Shown: positions 39,541 through 49,800 of the stretch, piece after piece | Position numbering within the stretch: position 1 is the stretch's first letter | Layout: each line of letters begins with the position of its first letter | Origin: Cetorhinus maximus | Taxonomy: Eukaryota | Assembly: GCF_964194155.1 (NCBI RefSeq) | Contig: NC_135902.1 | Span: forward strand, 48,236,001 to 48,300,000 | Reading direction: 5' to 3' | Length of the DNA: 64,000 nucleotides | The notes under the pieces: generated by a model | Seen by the model: the letters and a program-made list of their open reading frames with translations, nothing else | The model's database searches: none | What the model was told of the DNA's origin: nothing | Program-made: the position numbers and the translations under genes

Positions 39541-39718
39541 TCAAGGTAAGTGTTTGCCCTTGTGATGAGAGTGAAGCCATTTGAAGACCTCGTCCAGTCC
39601 TCTACCATCCCATGCACTAACTTTCAACACGCTGATGTGCTGCTTGGCACAGGCAATGATGTCATCCATCCTGAACAGGCTTTTCATCTCCACAAGGGAC
39701 ATGTAGCAGGAGAGATCA
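39541..39718 (-). CDS. ARL16: ARL16 exon 5 (DLSCYMS...HKGKHLP*)
   Basis: tttcag| acceptor, TGA at 39543-39541. Confidence 0.94.
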
Positions 39719-42700
39719 CTGAAATTAAAAGAAACTTGATTATTCCTATCCATTTAAATATTAATAAGGTGTTGATCCTCACTCAGGAAGCGGTTGTGTT
39801 TGTCTTTAACCACACCTTATCTTTCAACCCAAACTGTTTGTTTTGAGCTTCTACCAAATATTTTACTTTTCAGCCTTTTCATCTGTGTGAGGGATGCTTC
39901 ACAGAATCAGAGTACTTACAGCTCAGAAACAGGCCGTCCAGCCTAGCTGAGCTACTCCTACTCCCCATGAACCTCCTTCCCACCTCTCTACATCTAACCC
40001 GTGTAATGACATCTACTGCACCAGCTGTAAGGTTGGTTAAAGCTCAGGTCAGATGTAGATTAAAGTTCCCTTTCACTCTGCCCAACAATATACCCCTCAC
40101 TCCAAACCTTGGGGTCACAATCCTTATCGTGACATTTCCATATCCATTGTAGTGTGATTCACTGGGACTAACCAGAGTGGGAGCAACTGTGCCCAGAACT
40201 ATCACGAGAAAGGATGGTTTAAAGGAATCAAACCTGTACTATTCCCTAATGGAGAGAAGGGATGGTCATAAAAGCCCTCTATTCTGGACTCAAAGACAGG
40301 CACTGTGAGTACTACATGTTGAGCGCGCACAACCTGAAACAGACTGTGCGGGGTCCATACTTACACCTTGTTGAAGAGAATGAGGATGGAAGTTTGCTGT
40401 AGTTGCTCAGCAGTAAGCACGGAGAGGAGCTGAATGCAGGAGGAGGAAACCTGAGTGGGATTGGCAGCGTCGATCATGAACTAGGAGGAAACATTCACCT
40501 TTTTAGAGGCAGTGTAAAACTCTAGAATCCATGCATCAACTCTAGGGCATGCTGGAGCTGTCTTATCTCATTTGGTGACAGGACTGGCCTGATCTCTGCT
40601 GTGCCTCATGGGGAAATGCCCAAGCACAGGAGAATTGTTTGGGGAATAGGAAACGTGGAGAGTGAGTCAGCTCAGGCTGCACTGTTGAAGCTGTTATACA
40701 GCGGTATTAGCACTCAGCCAGTTCCCTGCCTGCCCTCAGGCAGAGTATGATGAAGGAAACAAATTGCTTTTATTTTAAGGAGGCAGCTATGTTCTGGTTG
40801 TTAAAGAAATAGTGGTACAGTGTTAATGTCATTGTCGGAACCGATCTTAAAACGAAATTAACAGAGTGCAAGAGATTTTTTTCATTGTACTGTGTCTGCT
40901 GGCACTGAAGTAGCTAAACAATGTAAAAGTAGGGCAACAACTTCAGACAAGAATAAACTATTGGTTCATCTTGTCTACATATCTCGTCCTGTTGTGTTTT
41001 CTGGATGTTGCTTCCAGCTAGCTCGTAGCATTCAAATCTGCCAATACTCACTATCACAGCCTCACAGTCTCTGTAGTAACTTGGCCAGATAGGTGCCATG
41101 CAGCCTCCTAATTCTCGAATGGTAATCCTCTTTTTATTAACCATGATATCGGTTAAGTTAGTTCCCACCTGCAGGCAAAGCAGACTGATTAAAAAATACA
41201 ATATCAAACACCCACTGGATATGCTGAGATTATGTTCCAAGACACAGTTGAAAGTGTTAATAATTAACATCACAGTAACGGTTACATAGAATTTCTAACA
41301 CAAACAGACCACTCAGCCAAATTGGTCCAAGCTGGTGTTCATGCTCCACATGAGCCTCCTGCCACCCTGGTTAAAGTGACACTATCCACATCTCCTCCTA
41401 CTCCTGTTCTCATCTTTATCTAGTTTCAATGCAGCAGTGCCACCCACCTGAGTTCGTCCAGATGGTTACACGTTCCACACTCTGGGTTAAATAAGTTTGA
41501 AATGGTATTGGTTAGAATTTGTTTACACTGATCTGGAACTTGTTGCCTATGCGGATGGTGGAAGTGGAGATGATTAATGATCTCAAAAACAAAGTGGATG
41601 GTCATTTGAGTGAAATAAAGTAGCAAAGCTACAGGGGATGGAATGGGGGCATGGGTTCGATGGGCCGAATGGCCTCCTTCAGTGCTGTCAATGCCTATGT
41701 TTGGTTGAATGTTAAACTGGGTGAATAAGTTTTAATATTCTCTGGGCCATTTACATTCTCACTGATTCTTTCTAGATTCTCATTGTAACTTGATCTTTCC
41801 CGAGTTGTTGAGCTCTTTAAGTTCCAGCCCACCTCTTCCAGCACAGGTATGATGTCACCTAATCACCCTATCTTGAGTTACCACAACTCTTTATTCTGCT
41901 GCAGTTCAACAATGCGAGTGGCTTTTCCAATGGCCCTTTTGCCTGCGTTTCCCCGTTTATAACAAGGCAGCATTTGTAATGTATAGATACTAATTGTACT
42001 GAGGTGGCCTCCTCTCTGCTCCTGACACGATGGAGATGATCCAGCAGTCTGCGTGAAAGACAATGGCACTCAGCTGAAGCGACCATGGTGTTGCTGTAAA
42101 GCCACATTGGATAGGGTGAAGGATAGGGACAGGAAGCAGAGGCTCTGTCTTCATGAGTAAGAATCTCGCAGCCTCAACCAACTATTATTTTACACAATGG
42201 ACTGATATTTACTGATATGGTACCAGCCCCAGCTAGAAAGCAGTCCATGCCAGTTCATTAAAAAAGATGAAGAAACTATGGCTGAAGCTGGCTTTCCTTT
42301 ACAAAGATGAAAGATCTACAGGAAAAAGAACAACATTTAAATTGAGTTATTACCCTCTATATAAGTGACAGCTTGCCTCAGAATCGGGTGGTTGTGAGGT
42401 ATTGGCTTCAGCACAAGCTAAGCTGACATGATTTTCGGAGGTGTTGTCTGTCGGACAAGACGTTAAACATAGGTCCTGTACATTCATCAAACACACCAGG
42501 CTGCCTGTCCCAACAATGGACCTAACCGAAACTTGAAGACAGCTCTGAAGAAGGGTCATACGGACTCAAAACGTTAACTCTGTTTTTCTCTCCACAGAGG
42601 TTGTTAGACCTGCTGAGTTTTTCCAGTATTTTCTGTTTTTGTTGTTGAAGAACGTTTCACCTGCTGCACTGTTGTCAACTGAATCCTGTGGCTTCTCCGA

Positions 42701-45700
42701 GTGAGACTGTAAATTTAGTCCCAAGTGTCAGCACTCTCAATTCTGAGTCAGAGGCTCCACTCTCGGCTCATACTTCACTGCAGGGAGCCCTGCACAGTCT
42801 TTCAGGTGCGACTTTAAACTGAGAGCGCGGGAGTTCTATTTTAATGTCTGCCATTTTCCCCTCAATCAGCAAAAATCACTAAAACAGACTTTGTGAACAT
42901 TTAACACACTGCAGTTCATTCACAAATTTGCTGCTGTTTGCCCCAACATTTACAACAAGACTGCTTTCAACAGCACTTCACTGGCCGTGATGCTCTGGGA
43001 CATCCTGAATAACATTAGGAAGAGAAGGCCATTCGGCCCCTCTAGTCTGTTTGTTATATCAATTATATATTTCTTCTATATCATAGCCAGTATTTTTTAC
43101 TGCAGGCTCATCGGTTAGAAACTTATTTTGTGCAAGATCCTCACGGCAAGTAGAGGAATCTTTTGTCCCAATCAACAATATTGCCAACACCTAGGATTTT
43201 ACTCACGTGTCTTGTGATCTGATTGTGCTTCAGGTGGAAAATATAAACACTAAATACAATGTTTAAATTTCCCCCAGAGGTAGAGGTGGATGGGGAAATG
43301 AAAATCCCTAAATTGCAAAGGTTGGCAAAACTGTGCCAGATTGCGATTGATCAAGGTGAAAGTGAGTGTTATCCATCATCCGGACACTCGCTTAGGATGT
43401 TCTAAGGATTACCACTCATTATACATAAAGCTTTAATGCAGGTCTTCTGTTGAACACATTGAAAAGCCAGTCTGAGCGTACCGTGGGCAATGTAGGTGGA
43501 GGCTCTCCTAGTTCATCAGTGCTTTCTTTCAAACTCATCTGTGCATTCCAGTCAAGGATCCAAAAAGGGAAAACATATTTTAAAAATGGAATATCAATTT
43601 TAAAATCGGATAAATTCACATATCACGTTCTGCGAAATACTGATGTCAGTGATGTACCTAAATATTCAAAGCTTGAAAATGACTGGTCCTTCATATAAAG
43701 CTGTTGTCGCTTATACCACTTTTAAGGAGGCTGTAGGTTCTAGTCACTCCAGAGACTTGAACACAAAACTCTAGGCTGACACTCCAGTGCTGTACTGAGG
43801 GAGGGCTGCATTGTCAGAGGTGCTGTCTTTTGGATGAGACATTAAACCTCAACGCCCTGTCTGCTCTCTCAGGTGGGGGTGAAAGATCCCACTGCACTAT
43901 TTCAAAGAGTAGCAGGGGAGATACCTGGCCAATATTTATACTTCAACCAAAGCCGACAACAGATTGTCTGATGCGGTTTGTGAGACTTTGCTGCATACAA
44001 GTTGGTTGTCGCATATCTTACAACCAGTGACTACACTTCAAAAACACTTCATTGGCTGTAAGGTTCTGAAGTTGTGAAAGGTGTTATATAAATGCAAGTC
44101 TTTCTTTAGATTTTTATTGATATTGATCTTTTTATTCCTCCTGCTACAGCGTCTGGCGAGTATAGTTCTCCTCTTTAGTTTTCCATGCCATCTTCCATTG
44201 CCTCCAGTAGGTGACCTCCTCACGGCCCTCCATCAATGGACAAGTATTAAGACACGTGAAAGCAACCAGGGGAGAAAAGAAACCCTTCATTTCTAACTAT
44301 GAGAAGAAACAACACTGTTCCTCCTCATCTTTCAGAGGTGTTAACCCGAGACCCCATCTGCTCTTTCAGGTGCCTGTAAAAGATCCCATTGCACTATTTT
44401 GTAGAGCAGGGAGATTATCCCCAGTGTCCTGGCCAATATTTATCCCTCAATCAACTTCACAAAAACAGATCATCAGGTCATTACAGTGTTGCTGTTTGTG
44501 GGATCCTGCTTTGCACAAAGGAGCTGCCCTGTTTCCTACATTTCGACGGCGACTACACTTGACCTCATTGGCTGTAAAGCGCTTTGGGGCATCCTAAGAA
44601 TGTGAAAGGTGCTATAGAAATACAAAGTCTTTCTTTGTATGCTGTTACTTAAATGCTACTTTACATTTTATTATAGAGCTGTAATAATCTACATACAATT
44701 CAGCAGAGTTTGTCAGACATTTTTGGGTCATATTTATGAAGCAGATCTTTGGTTAGTGGCTCCTATAGTCCAGCAGATTTATCCTATAAGTAGCTGAGTC
44801 AGGAGAGTCCCAGCTCAATCTCTAGTCTGTGTTGAGTTAGCCAATGCCAGGGCTGCAGTAGAAATTCTAAAAAAACATACAAGTTTTAAAAGTATAAAAT
44901 CTGATTAAGTGCAAAAAGCTGTTAAAACGGAGAGAGAAAGTCATGCATTACTTTCATCATTGTAACGTTTAACAGCACAGTGACACAAATAAATTATATC
45001 AATTATAGTGCACACTTTAAAACAACACCTTTCAACCGGAAGAGAAACATATAAAATTGGTCTGGTATTTAAAATCACACAATTTGCATGGCATTTAAAA
45101 ATAATAGTTTGTGGGAAAATTAAAATCACACTCAGCTCAGAACAGTGACTACACTTCAAGACTACTTCATTGACTAAAGCACTTTGGAACATCCTGTGAA
45201 AAGTGTCACATAAAGTCTTTCTATTGAATGGTTTTTTTAAATCTCACTCAGACTGAGTAGTATTTAAAATCTCAGTCGGACTGAATGCTATTTAAAATCA
45301 TCGTCAGACTGAATGCTATTTAAAATCAGTCAGACTGAACGCTATTTAAAATCACAGTTGGACTGAATGTTATTTAAAATCACAGCTGGACTGAATGCTA
45401 TTTAAAATCACAGTTGAACTGAACGCTATTTAAAATCACAGTTGGACTGATGCTATTTAAAAATCACAGGTGGGGTGCTATTTAAAATCACAGTCGGTCT
45501 GATGCTATTTGAAAATCAGAGTCAGGCTGAATGCTATTTAGAATCACAGCCAGACTAAATGCTATTTAAAAACCACTCTCAATGCTATTTAAAATCAGTC
45601 AGAATGAACCATATTTGAACAATCACACAGAGATTGTCTGGTATTTCAGAATCTCACACAATGTGCCTTGTATTTGGAAGTTATTCACTCTTTGTGCTGT

Positions 45701-46284
45701 TTGAAGGAAATTGTATAGTCTCTCGCTGTTTGAAAGATATTGTACAGTCTCTAGCTGTTTAAAGGATATTGTACAGTCTCTGTTTAAAGGATATTATACA
45801 GTCTCTAGCTGTTTAAAGGATATTGTAGTCTCTAACTGTTTAAAGGATATTGTACAGTCTCTAGCTGTTCAAAGGATATTGTACAGTCTCTAGCTGTTTA
45901 AAGGATATTGTACAGTCTCTGTTTAAAGGATATTGTACAGTCTCTAACTGTTTAAAGGATATTGTACAGTCTCTAACTGTTTAAAGGATATTGTACAGTC
46001 TCTAGCTGTTTAAAGGATATTGTACAGTCTCTAACTGTTTAAAGGATATTGCACAGTCTCTAACTGTTTAAAGGATATTGTACAGTCTCTAACTGTTTAA
46101 AGGATATTGTACAGTCTCTAACTGTTTAAAGGATATTGCACAGTCTCTAACTGTTTAAAGGATATTGTACAGTCTCTAACTGTTTAAAGGATATTGCACA
46201 GTCTCTAACTGTTTAAAGGATATTGTACAGTCTCTTGAGCAGCAGAGTTTTGCCGACCCCAGTGACTCCCAGGAGGAGACACAT
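39541..46284 (-). CDS. ARL16: ADP-ribosylation factor-like GTPase 16, gene span, 176 aa
   Basis: Five exons join to 531 nt: 46284-46224, 43540-43482, 41168-41052, 40480-40365, 39718-39541. MCLLLGVTGVGKT P-loop, LGEPPPTLPTVGTNL, RELGGCM (atypical G3) and NKVD match recalled ARL16. Confidence 0.96.
40365..40480 (-). CDS. ARL16: ARL16 exon 4 (FMIDAANPTQ...ILFNKV)
   Basis: cctag| acceptor, GT|gtaagt donor, 116 bp. Confidence 0.94.
41052..41168 (-). CDS. ARL16: ARL16 exon 3 (VGTNLTD...RELGGCMAPIW...EAVI)
   Basis: ctgcag| acceptor, |gtgagt donor, 117 bp. Confidence 0.95.
43482..43540 (-). CDS. ARL16: ARL16 exon 2 (KMSLKESTDELGEPPPTLPT)
   Basis: AC| acceptor with TCCTTGAC branch site; |gtacgc donor; 59 bp. 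Confidence 0.92.
43720..44640 (+). mobile_element. Two Deu-type SINE copies (about 43720-44110 and 44330-44640)
   Basis: Core and tail motifs in both copies. Confidence 0.7.
45225..45610. repeat. ~28-bp minisatellite (gactgaatgctatttaaaatcacagttg)
   Basis: Recurrent gctatttaaaatcacag motif. Confidence 0.9.
45697..46235 (-). repeat. 29-bp minisatellite built from the ARL16 exon 1 / U12 donor junction
   Basis: ctgtttaaaggatattgtacagtctcta(a/g) repeated; 17 aaaggatat cores including the genuine donor, plus 2 degenerate distal copies. Confidence 0.95.
46224..46284 (-). CDS. ARL16: ARL16 exon 1 (MCLLLGVTGVGKTLLLKRLY)
   Basis: gccATG at 46284; ends at the U12 donor |ATATCCTTT. Confidence 0.93.
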
Positions 46285-46439
46285 GGCCCCGGGGAGAGGC
46301 TTTGGCTGATCGACCCAGGGAGGAAGAATGAGTAATAAAGTCTGGTGTAAGATGCTCGTCAATTATTCCAAAGGAAATAAATAAGAAAACATTGTCTTTA
46401 AAATAAAACGGTGTTCAATCCAACTCGAGTAAAGAGGCC

Positions 46440-46720
46440 ACAGCTCCTCAGACGGTTACTTGGCAACGCTAGAGTCGCTGCCCTGTGACGTCATAACAGT
46501 GCGTCCCACCTTTCGCCTGGAATTTTTTAAAATAATAATTATAAATGGCCACCTACCGTTCTCGCTGGACACATTAAACTGGCCCCGACTCTATCCCTGG
46601 TCAACATTTTATTTTTCCGAAACGGATCTTAATCGTGCGCCGGGTCCTTGTGACGTCGTGAAGGGTGCGACCGACCCGCTGTGGCTGCTCCTCGTGACGT
46701 CAGAAACTGGCGACGCCGGC
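46440..46720. promoter_or_regulatory. Bidirectional ARL16/HGS CpG-rich promoter with RFX X-box and CRE sites
   Basis: GTTACTTGGCAAC at 46455-46467; TGACGTCA at 46486-46493 and 46695-46702; TGACGTCG at 46651-46658; ATGs are 528 bp apart and divergent. Confidence 0.72.
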
Positions 46721-46812
46721 CCTGTTTAGGCCCCCGGGGAGTCAGCAGCAGCAGGTTAGGCGGCTCCGGAGCTGCCGGGATTCAGAGGAAAAGGGACCGA
46801 CAACCGGAGAGG

Positions 46813-46849
46813 ATGGGAAAAGGCAGCGGCCCCTTCGAGAGGCTTCTCG
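46813..46849 (+). CDS. HGS: HGS exon 1 (MGKGSGPFERLL)
   Basis: aggATGg start, G|gtgaga donor, 37 bp. Confidence 0.93.
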
Positions 46850-49800
46850 GTGAGAGGCGGGAGCTTCTTCCTCTCTCTAAAACCCCCCCCCACGTCCTCC
46901 CCCATTGTTGTTTCATGGGAGCCGGGCCCGCTCACCGGCCGCCATTTCAGAAACCGAGGCCGAGACCTGGGACTGGAGTCGGGGCTGAGGCCCGGGGTCC
47001 GGGGTCCGGGGTGGAGGTGGAGGTGGGGACGGGGACCCGGGCAGCCGCTGGTGCAGCCTCGCTGGGTTGAGCGTCTGCTCAGAGCCCCAAAGGGTTATTC
47101 ACTGAGTGAGATTTTACCAAATGGTTGGAACCACTTTTGAGTCCCTATTGTATAATCAGCCAGTCTCTGTGTCTCCACAGCGCCCGGTTACAGCTAAACC
47201 TTTCTAATGGGCAGGACTACAGCCCTGAGGAACTGTCTGTGTCTTACAGTGAGGAGGCCTGACTCTGGGGTGGTGGCTGTGTGGGGTGGGTCTGTCTCTC
47301 TCTCTCTCTCTCACTCTGAGGCTGCTCTGATAAAAGAAACTCAATCGAGATAAATCTGAAGCAAGAGCAGTGAATGCTGGAGTCACTCGGGTCTTGCAGA
47401 TCTCTGGAAAGGGCTGACAAATTCACATTGTGTGTGTGTGTGTGGAGCCTTAAACAGAAACATTTGTTTATGATCTTGCCCATATTGTGGTGTTTGGGAG
47501 TTGGGGGGGGGGGCGGTAAACTGACTTGGAGAGGGGAGCGAGTGACAATCGGGGTGATCCCTGTAACAGGATATGTTGGGAATGGGCAGTATAGGGTGAG
47601 AGGAGTTATCCAGGCGATGACGGGGATCTGGAGCTCTGCCTGGAAGTGAGGTAGAGGCATAAACTGTCGTAACACTTTTTTTAAAAAAAACTTTGCTGTG
47701 AACTTGAAGCATCATAACCTACAGGGTTACAGGCCAAGAGCTGGAAAGTGGGATTAGGCTGGATAGCTCGTTTACAGCTGACACTGACATGATGGAGTGA
47801 ATGGGATACATCTTCCATGTTTTGTTTGGACTGATGTTTAAAGCTATATGTGTAGAGCATACAGACTGATCTCTGCTATTGCTTGACGAATCTGTGCTAA
47901 TCTCTCCTTTCACTTGCCCACTCTAAAGCACTTCTCTTGTTAAGTAATTGCCTTTTGTGTTTAATGGGGGAAGAGCTGTCTGTTGCTTTTGTCAGTGATG
48001 CCCTGTACGATTATGTTATTTCAAGAATTCCTGGGACCCAGCGCACCAAAAACATTCAGGTTCAGTGCACGAACCGAGGGATAGATTGAGCGCGATTACA
48101 GAAGACTGGCTTATGTCCCCTGAAGTGTGGGAGGTTAAGGGATGATTTAATTTAGGATTTTGAAAGGAATTGATGGAAGCTTTTTCTGCTTGTAGGGGAG
48201 TGTAGGGCATAATCGTAAAATGGAATCTTATAATGTTTACAGTAATTATTCCATGTTTGTATCAATAACAAAGCAAATTCCTATCACAATAGACCAGGCT
48301 TAAATGGTGTCCATATTTAGCTAGAATCCCTGGGCATGAACTCCATAGGCCCATGTATTAATCCGCCCCCATTTGTCTCATTTATATTACGGATTTGTTG
48401 TCCAGGTAACTAAGAAACCATCCTGTCCTGACCCTGTCTTGAGATTCCCTGCATAAGAAATGAATTAGGAGCAGATTGCAGATCAGCCATTTCATTGGAT
48501 GTTGGGACAGAATCAAGAGGCCAAATGACCTCCTCCTGTCCCCATGTACTTGTGCTTTTTTAAAATTCATTTACAGGAGGTGGGCTTCGCTGGCTAGGCC
48601 AGCATTTATTGCCCTTGAGAAGGTGGTGGTGAGCGGCCTTCTTGAACCGCTGCAGTCCACATGGTGTGGGTACACCCACAACGCTGTTAGGGAGGGAGTT
48701 CCAGGATTTTGACCCAGCGACAGTGAAGGAACAGTTTATGCATTCAGAACCTCATCTTTTGTGTGGCTGTCATTGGCAATATTCTGTCCATCCTCTGGTA
48801 TTGTGGCTTTGTGTAAGGAAGCTCTGTCCCTTGTGCCTGCTGTACATGATCTCTTGTTTTGGGAAGATTTTGAACCAATGCTGTGCCTCCAGCCAGGGGG
48901 AGAGTTAATCTGCTATTGACTCTCCCTTTAGTCAGAGACTGTTAGTTACTCTCTTGGCTGCTTATTGTAGCTGTAAATGAGACTGGAAACAAACCAGCAG
49001 CCAACCTGACTAGACTGAGCATATTATCCAGCGAGTTAAAGAAATTCTGTCTCCACTTGGACTAGATGGATTTTAACGGGCTAGGTTCAATTAGCAAGGT
49101 AGTAACTTTTATTGTCAAATTAAATTTTTACGCTTAAAAGATTTATGATTTAAAAAAATGATGTAGCAATTGGAATATTTTGAATTTCTATTTATAAATG
49201 TGAAATGGTTTAGGGTTTTTTTGAAGATTTATTTTCTTGCACAGCTGTTTTGCTTACTTTTTTTGCTCCTTTCGCTCTGATACTGGAAGTGTGATTTATG
49301 ATGTTTCTCTTACCAGGGTGAGGTTAATGCTTCATGTTCGTTGCCTTTGTGTTTTTCTTCCTGTTCTATGGTAAGCGTAATCAGGTGGAAGGAAATGTAC
49401 AATCGTGCTGCAGAAACTGAGAACTGTGAACCTTTCCCAGCTCTAATTTCGGAAGAGTAACTGACCCATGCGACAACACTCGCTGAGAAATGGGGGGACT
49501 CTGAATCTCGCTGCTACTGCTTCATAGATGTTTCCTTTATCTATTCCAACAGTGGCTCATGAGAAAGGCTGCCTGCATGTCCTAGTGCGAGGAATACTTG
49601 GTTTATCCTTATTTGTGTGTTTAATTTTCTTCTTTTTCTCCCTAAACAGACAAAGCAACCAGCCAGCTACTTCTCGAAACTGATTGGGAATCCATCCTGC
49701 AGATCTGTGACCTGATTCGACAGGGAGATGCCCAGTAGGTGTTTGGGTAGAGAGGTGGAGACAGACTGTGTGTTGTAAAGCAGAGTGTTTTAGCTCGGAC

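Follow-up and report, generated by a model that had tools for sequence, protein, structure and literature searches.

In the basking shark (Cetorhinus maximus), the first exon of ARL16 runs directly into a minisatellite that repeats the minor-spliceosome (U12-type) donor site of intron 1. We analyzed this element within a window of 64,000 nt (contig NC_135902.1, positions 48,236,001 to 48,300,000; all positions below count from the first letter of this window), in which ARL16 lies on the minus strand. The host protein belongs to the Arf family according to Pfam, and a search with exon 3 returned ARL16 proteins with a top match of 97% identity. When the five exons were spliced via the first donor, the product was identical to P0001, the public basking-shark ARL16 isoform X1, at all 176 residues, which confirmed the gene identity proposed in the first-pass annotation; it agreed with the matching part of P0011 at 173 of 176 residues. 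Intron 1 comprises 2683 nt; its first two bases are AT and its last two AC (at 43541), and it contains a single CCTTRAY branch-like site at 43557. The consensus of U12-type donors is RTATCCTTT. It is known that donor and branch site define U12 introns (PMC3584512). By its donor, a branch site near the 3' end, and its AT–AC ends, ARL16 intron 1 is of the U12 AT–AC type, as had been suggested. Human ARL16 is a minor-intron gene, too, and its splicing changes upon loss or reduction of ZCRB1 (PMC13216214).

Tandem Repeats Finder (TRF) produced 72 rows for the window. The array at the exon 1/intron 1 junction (46235–45697, minus strand) was reported with a period of 29 bp, 18.9 copies (approximately 19 units), and 92% matches. 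Its first unit crosses the junction, and the repeat unit corresponds to the final 12 nt of exon 1 plus the initial 17 nt of intron 1. Exact matches to the core ATATCCTTT occur 17 times in the array, all on the minus strand, from 46223–46215 down to 45769–45761; shuffling predicts 0.41 matches in the whole window, in which three more were observed beyond the array. Two units at the far end are decayed; in these, the intron part begins at 45740 and 45711. Exact matches and TRF therefore agree with the earlier count and placement of 17 intact cores and two decayed copies, and only a variant given as TGCACA had to be corrected, as the sequence reads TGTGCA. A 26-nt piece of the unit had 11 exact matches in the genome (3.99 Gb), every one within the ARL16 array. 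A dispersed repeat family was considered and ruled out, since the unit is confined to this one locus; the second, 28-bp minisatellite of the intron (45235–45571) also has a single genome locus. At the unit junctions (46194–46211 and every later one, minus strand), we noted a small inverted repeat, ACAGT...ACTGT around 5 nt, which is predicted to fold as a short hairpin that leaves the donor core mostly unpaired; this may have promoted slippage.

Of 24 sequencing runs, four hold most of the gene and derive from one sample, possibly the assembly source; others come from two relatives, B and C. Four runs, namely X1, X5 (relative B), X10 (relative C), and X15 (RNA of relative C), were compared on positions 46149–46900, a stretch with exon 1 and units 1–3; X5 and X10 were read in part (~65% and ~83%). 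In X1, the depth of three repeat pieces relative to single-copy sequence was 3.8, 6.7, and 6.9, and the assembly predicts 4, 7, and 7; this is a consistency check, as X1 may be the source sample. X5 differed from the window at 31 of 679 letters and X10 at 35 of 682, which corresponds to a divergence of ~5%. The long contigs of both stop at the end of unit 1 (46209 in relative B, 46206 in relative C). Beyond this point, relative B has five short contigs on the units, including core-bearing perfect pieces of 27–30 nt and one piece marked by a deletion of 4 nt, and relative C has two short contigs on the units plus one in which 50 nt of units are followed by the window's own post-array flank. The array is real and common to three species, and because repeated units occur in relatives B and C, it is older than the split of these species. 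The proposed check in related sharks thus succeeded for presence; copy number could be approached by depth, which is a rough guide only. Depth ratios of the repeat pieces reached ~3 in both relatives vs. ~7 in X1, which stands for one individual of the window's species, and this gives a rough hint that the arrays of the relatives are shorter.

Use of the first donor was seen in the RNA of relative C. One X15 contig covers 46473–46223 and continues into the start of exon 2; it is spliced and therefore represents RNA, and its form reads through the acceptor upstream of exon 1. Splicing at the U12 AT–AC ends (46224 to exon 2) was hence observed in this relative and not in the window's own species. 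X15 provided no cover of units 2 and 3 (46149–46200), to which we gave no weight, since contigs drop rare forms.

The consequences of using any other donor are uniform. With any of the 18 later donors, codon 24 becomes a stop, at a distance of 23 codons from the AUG, as had been anticipated for a donor past the true one. The stop is formed by the intron's own bases +9 to +11 and is therefore carried by every copy. In addition, ARL16 has an upstream in-frame ATG exon, which gives rise to either a 200-aa form (like P0011) or, via exon 3, a 153-aa form without P-loop (P0013). In the public isoform P0013, this exon (46607–46557) is joined in frame to exon 3, so that exons 1 and 2 are skipped and the P-loop is lost. 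The upstream exon joined to the CAG acceptor at 46306 matches P0011 at 42 of 44 residues, and both differences fit the letters of run X10; a U2-type acceptor therefore likely lies 82 nt ahead of the U12 donor. Public models from other sharks (P0016, P0021, and P0022) bypass the minor intron in differing ways. The features are compiled in Table 1.

Table 1. Positions of the array and of the ARL16 features in the window.
Feature	Positions	Strand	Basis
29-bp minisatellite, ~19 units	45697..46235	-	TRF, alignment of units
Genuine U12-type donor ATATCCTTT (unit 1)	46215..46223	-	spliced product vs. P0001; RNA contig of relative C
16 extra intact ATATCCTTT cores (units 2–17)	45761..46194	-	exact matches; U11 duplex prediction
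Two decayed end units, cores ATATCTTTC and ATTTCCTTC	45697..45752	-	unit variants; weaker predicted U11 duplex
Second, unrelated 28-bp minisatellite, 12 copies, 82% matches, same intron just behind the array	45235..45571		TRF
Upstream alternative exon, coding part, then GTAGGT donor at 46556	46557..46607	-	match to start of P0013
U2-type acceptor ahead of exon 1 (CAG, last base 46306, after a pyrimidine run)	46306..46330	-	use inferred from public model P0011
ARL16 exon 1, coding part; begins with the ATG at 46284 and carries the P-loop motif	46224..46284	-	spliced product
U12-type branch site TCCTTGAC, 8 nt ahead of terminal AC	43551..43558	-	motif search
AC acceptor of intron 1	43541..43542	-	sequence; RNA contig of relative C
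ARL16 exon 2, in-frame ATG at third base	43482..43540	-	spliced product
ARL16 exon 3	41052..41168	-	protein match
ARL16 exon 4	40365..40480	-	spliced product
ARL16 exon 5, coding part to stop	39541..39718	-	spliced product

A neighboring gene is arranged head-to-head with ARL16 on the plus strand (46813 onward), with its start ~530 nt from the ARL16 ATG. By resemblance, we take it to be HGS; in a contig of the X15 RNA, its first exon is connected at 46849 to the following one.

The capacity of the repeated cores to bind U11 was assessed by prediction. Genome-wide, 41 U11-like matches exceeded the Rfam cut-off, most of which are probably pseudogenes or extra copies. Five of the 19 units were paired with the three best of them: units 1, 2, and 13 formed the same 7-bp duplex in prediction (−6.5 to −6.6 kcal/mol), and the decayed units gave weaker ones (−2.6 and −4.0 vs. 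−6.5 kcal/mol). In local folding, the core of unit 1 had an unpaired probability of 0.31, and 15 of the 16 extra cores ranged from 0.17 to 0.50 (0.02 for the remaining one), compared to a median of 0.04 for the stretch. Since prediction leaves the extra cores about as open as the real donor, and the two intact extra units tested (2 and 13) pair as well as unit 1 does, binding of U11 is plausible. We rejected the idea that a fold masks the cores, as exon 1 together with ten units folds no more stably than shuffled sequences (z = −1.65; 8 of 100 as good).

The first-pass annotation had stressed that the core stays intact while other positions of the unit vary, and had asked whether substitutions avoid the 9-nt core. 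As a description, this applies to units 1–17, where no distinct variant allele falls within the core and six fall outside; as a departure from chance, it does not hold. Run on the units, the check revealed no significant avoidance, neither in units 1–17 (p = 0.11; low power with six events) nor in all 19 units (p = 0.46; three variants in the core and nine outside, with 31% expected in the core). We also searched the genome for arrays of three or more cores at 19–49-nt spacing, with the reversed 9-mer as the control. For ATATCCTTT, 46 matches at eight loci were obtained, 15 of them in ARL16 (reversed control: 21), and for GTATCCTTT, nine matches at three loci (reversed control: 22). Outside ARL16, core arrays were no commoner than the control (40 vs. 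43 matches). Inspection by eye of ~1.5 kb on each side of the 10 other core-array loci identified none with a clear coding exon together with a U12 branch site and an acceptor. Branch-like words were found at two other core arrays, namely on C5 (within an inverted repeat) and on C10 (without AC or AG in 22 nt). Four open frames beside two other core arrays had no Pfam match above the cut-off, and one of them, compared with solved structures, matched none.

Two of these other loci have an anatomy of their own. At ~30.42 Mb of C25 (L052:4613–5456, minus strand), a 37-bp minisatellite of 22 copies carries 19 intact ATATCCTTT cores and lies ~200 nt behind an apparent short first exon whose donor is GTGAGG; the array itself lies off any donor, and no branch-like site was found in the following 4.6 kb. 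At ~118.82 Mb of C5 (L015:1490–2850), a 21-bp array with GAG/GTATGA (U2-like) and ATATCCTTT is present in both arms of an inverted repeat of ~300 bp, the left arm being located behind a 71-nt open stretch, which is preceded by CAG and had no protein match.

How often a minisatellite would come to span a U12 donor by chance was estimated from the density of such repeats. Minisatellites of a similar kind numbered eight in 200 kb (twenty 10-kb stretches) and occurred in three of the stretches, two of which had been picked near the window. With 700–800 minor introns, the figure for human and mouse (PMC3584512), the expectation is 0.45–0.93 U12-donor-spanning arrays per genome, with a 95% range of 0.12–1.83. 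The estimate is crude; a single such array in the shark genome is explicable without selection.

Taken together, the 29-bp repeat is probably a tolerated passenger that was born of slippage or unequal exchange, and the first copy probably serves most of the splicing. A neutral slippage product, which the first-pass annotation had allowed for at the end of its list, now fits best in view of the chance estimate, the lack of detectable core protection, and the first-donor contig. By analogy, the best reading of the array is as a U12 version of the donor-spanning variable number tandem repeats (VNTRs) of human F7, CBS, and IFI6. In such a scenario, slippage or unequal exchange at the junction of exon 1 and the AT–AC intron 1 would have started the array. 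The coding exon and the donor would keep unit 1 constant, and newer units would be copied from unit 1, leaving the near end perfect and the far end decayed, with copy number drifting among lineages. The first donor would win as the one that is transcribed earliest and defined across the exon; occasional transcripts from a later donor would carry the codon-24 stop and disappear as noise.

Several observations weigh against this interpretation. The 16 extra cores in units 2–17 are perfect without exception, and the core test was one of low power. The chance estimate rests on eight arrays in 3 of 20 stretches and leaves out selection against arrays at exon ends. Units with intact cores persist through ~5% flanking divergence, for which selection could likewise be the cause. 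The RNA support consists of one contig, from a relative with an apparently shorter array, and contigs lose rare forms. Judged from the predicted pairing, it is plausible that U11 binds the additional cores, and such binding might influence splicing locally. Finally, the rule that the first site is used is known for U1-type donors only (PMC1557585).

The rival readings draw on the USSE (U11 snRNP-binding splicing enhancer; snRNP, small nuclear ribonucleoprotein), in which tandem U12-type 5' sites bind U11, remain unused as donors, and activate an upstream U2 acceptor; the element gives rise to unproductive RNA in SNRNP48 and RNPC3 and is conserved in plants and animals (PMC8329584, PMC5473595, PMC3584512). 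The first-pass annotation had suspected a 'super-USSE' or a decoy that sends transcripts to nonsense-mediated decay (NMD). This idea found no support: unit 1 is a working donor, the host gene encodes a small GTPase, copying extends over all 29 nt of the unit, and the core gave no detectable sign of constraint. For comparison, the basking-shark genome has a candidate USSE at ~13.34 Mb of C4 (L081:3775–3910, minus strand), behind an exon encoding a zf-U11-48K domain; the gene is presumably SNRNP48. There, a pyrimidine-rich U2 acceptor is followed by an 8-nt stretch, GTGAGT, and then GTATCCTTT and ATATCCTTT 19 nt apart, so that the two sites are situated ~94 and 113 nt behind the acceptor, with an unrepeated spacer. 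USSE spacing was taken from this candidate.

In the boldest reading, the 16 extra cores would form a lineage-specific U11 landing pad that has grown from a working minor-intron donor, and copy number (~19, apparently fewer in the relatives) would set the balance between full-length and P-loop-less or stop-containing products. We regard this as unlikely. If true, however, USSE-like regulators would number three, and this one, caught while forming, would be the first to lie in a gene other than those of the minor spliceosome itself; and if the extra sites shift the isoform balance, USSE-type control would have arisen in one step from a repeat expansion.

A related and rather improbable reading is that of a USSE-like enhancer. 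U11/U12 on the extra cores would strengthen the 82-nt exon 46305–46224 and favor the U2 acceptor and the full-length GTPase over the P-loop-less skip isoform, with copy number tuning the ratio. The expected outcome would be a productive one, since splicing to the upstream acceptor opens the full-length frame. The geometry is suitable, as the U2-type acceptor lies 82 nt ahead of unit 1 and 111 nt ahead of unit 2, comparable to the USSE-like sites of the SNRNP48 candidate in the same genome, and USSEs work through exon definition together with a U2 acceptor upstream (PMC8329584, PMC5473595). Furthermore, the skip isoform P0013 is on public record for the basking shark, the cores are predicted to be open and U11-pairing, and the array is common to three species. 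However, an 82-nt exon ahead of a donor is ordinary exon geometry, and the sole RNA contig reads through the acceptor from 46473, so that exon 1 is not entered there in that form. Models without exon 1 or cutting it also exist in more distant sharks (P0016, P0021, and P0022), and core constraint was not detected.

It is doubtful that the array acts as a set of poison donors or decoys, which would compete for the one branch site and AC, or stall U11/U12, and thereby cause, in part of the ARL16 transcripts, either the stop at codon 24 or nuclear retention, with copy number setting ARL16 output. Each of the 18 later donors does yield the stop, and all of them share a single U12 branch site. IFI6 and CBS use two downstream copies (PMC1557585), U11 on the USSE leads to nuclear retention of RNPC3 RNA (PMC5473595), and human ARL16, a minor-intron gene, shows shifted splicing upon ZCRB1 reduction (PMC13216214). 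On the other hand, the RNA contig of relative C represents first-donor splicing, and the stop simply comes along with intron bases +9 to +11. It follows the AUG by 23 codons, and stops near the AUG can escape NMD to a substantial degree (PMC3273812). U12 introns are described as having almost no alternative splicing (PMC3584512), and ARL16 is no spliceosome component, so that a feedback loop is not evident.

The two remaining readings are very improbable. Titration of the scarce U11/U12 in trans, which would slow other minor introns and had also been raised by the first-pass annotation, could appeal to minor snRNPs being ~100-fold rarer than major ones (PMC3584512) and to 17 predicted binding sites per transcript, but it is numerically weak: U12 splicing was apparently unaffected when U4atac was cut a further 10-fold (PMC3584512), the short-lived pre-mRNA of one gene would face 700–800 minor-intron genes, and ten other loci with arrays of the same core give no sign of a role. 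An array invented or inflated by the assembler would be in line with tandem repeats being a known cause of assembly error and with no single read record spanning the whole array (comparison stretch 46149–46900), but variants are interleaved among the units, the depth ratios of X1 fit the assembly (as a consistency check only), and two other species have repeated units, one of them with the same flank behind.

Even if neutral, the ARL16 array is a natural experiment on donor choice by the minor spliceosome, with 17 identical donors for one branch site, and on whether U11 sites lying idle near a real donor act like a USSE. Relatives with apparently differing copy numbers form a built-in dose series. 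In the literature searched, which left most subscription papers and supplementary VNTR tables outside, we found neither a U12 donor-spanning array nor anything on shark ARL16; the available parts of PMC10078293 did not mention U12 or CBS, and those of PMC1874599 held nothing on duplicated U12 donors.

Compared to known systems, the array resembles a USSE in that tandem U12-type 5' sites are predicted to pair with U11 and follow a U2 acceptor located 80–115 nt upstream, in this case the CAG ending at 46306, the use of which is inferred from P0011. A USSE, however, consists of two sites with an unrepeated spacer that are not donors, resides in minor-spliceosome genes, i.e., those of the U11/U12 di-snRNP, and produces unproductive RNA, whereas ARL16 has 17 sites within a copied exon/intron unit, the first copy of which is a working donor, in a gene of the Arf family. 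With regard to conservation, the array is common to two relatives at ~5% divergence, and its cores show no significant protection. Since unit 1 is a donor and the host is no spliceosome gene, we did not file the array as a USSE.

The closer counterparts are minisatellites at major-spliceosome donors; those of IFI6, CBS, LMNB2, and PDGF are of the U2 type. In the closest known case, the 37-bp VNTR of human F7 intron 7, the first unit spans the junction, and the identical later donors are functional but silent (PMC1557585). The ARL16 array has the same anatomy, i.e., a junction-spanning first unit with the donor repeated into the intron as identical pseudo-donors, and in both systems the most upstream donor was seen in use (for ARL16, in the one RNA contig of relative C) and no fold hiding the later copies is predicted (Borensztajn et al. 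2006). The two differ in that the F7 VNTR has a U2/U1 donor, 5–9 units, and pseudo-sites proven functional by mutation, whereas the ARL16 array has a U12 AT–AC donor and 19 units and is known from sequence. IFI6 (6-16; 25 pseudo-sites), CBS intron 13 (15–20 units), LMNB2, and PDGF are similar to ARL16 in unit length, copy number, and junction origin. Only the first site is used in F7, LMNB2, and PDGF, whereas IFI6 and CBS use the first three, i.e., two later copies besides the first (PMC1557585). To these donor-spanning minisatellites of the major spliceosome, the ARL16 array adds one at a U12 donor.

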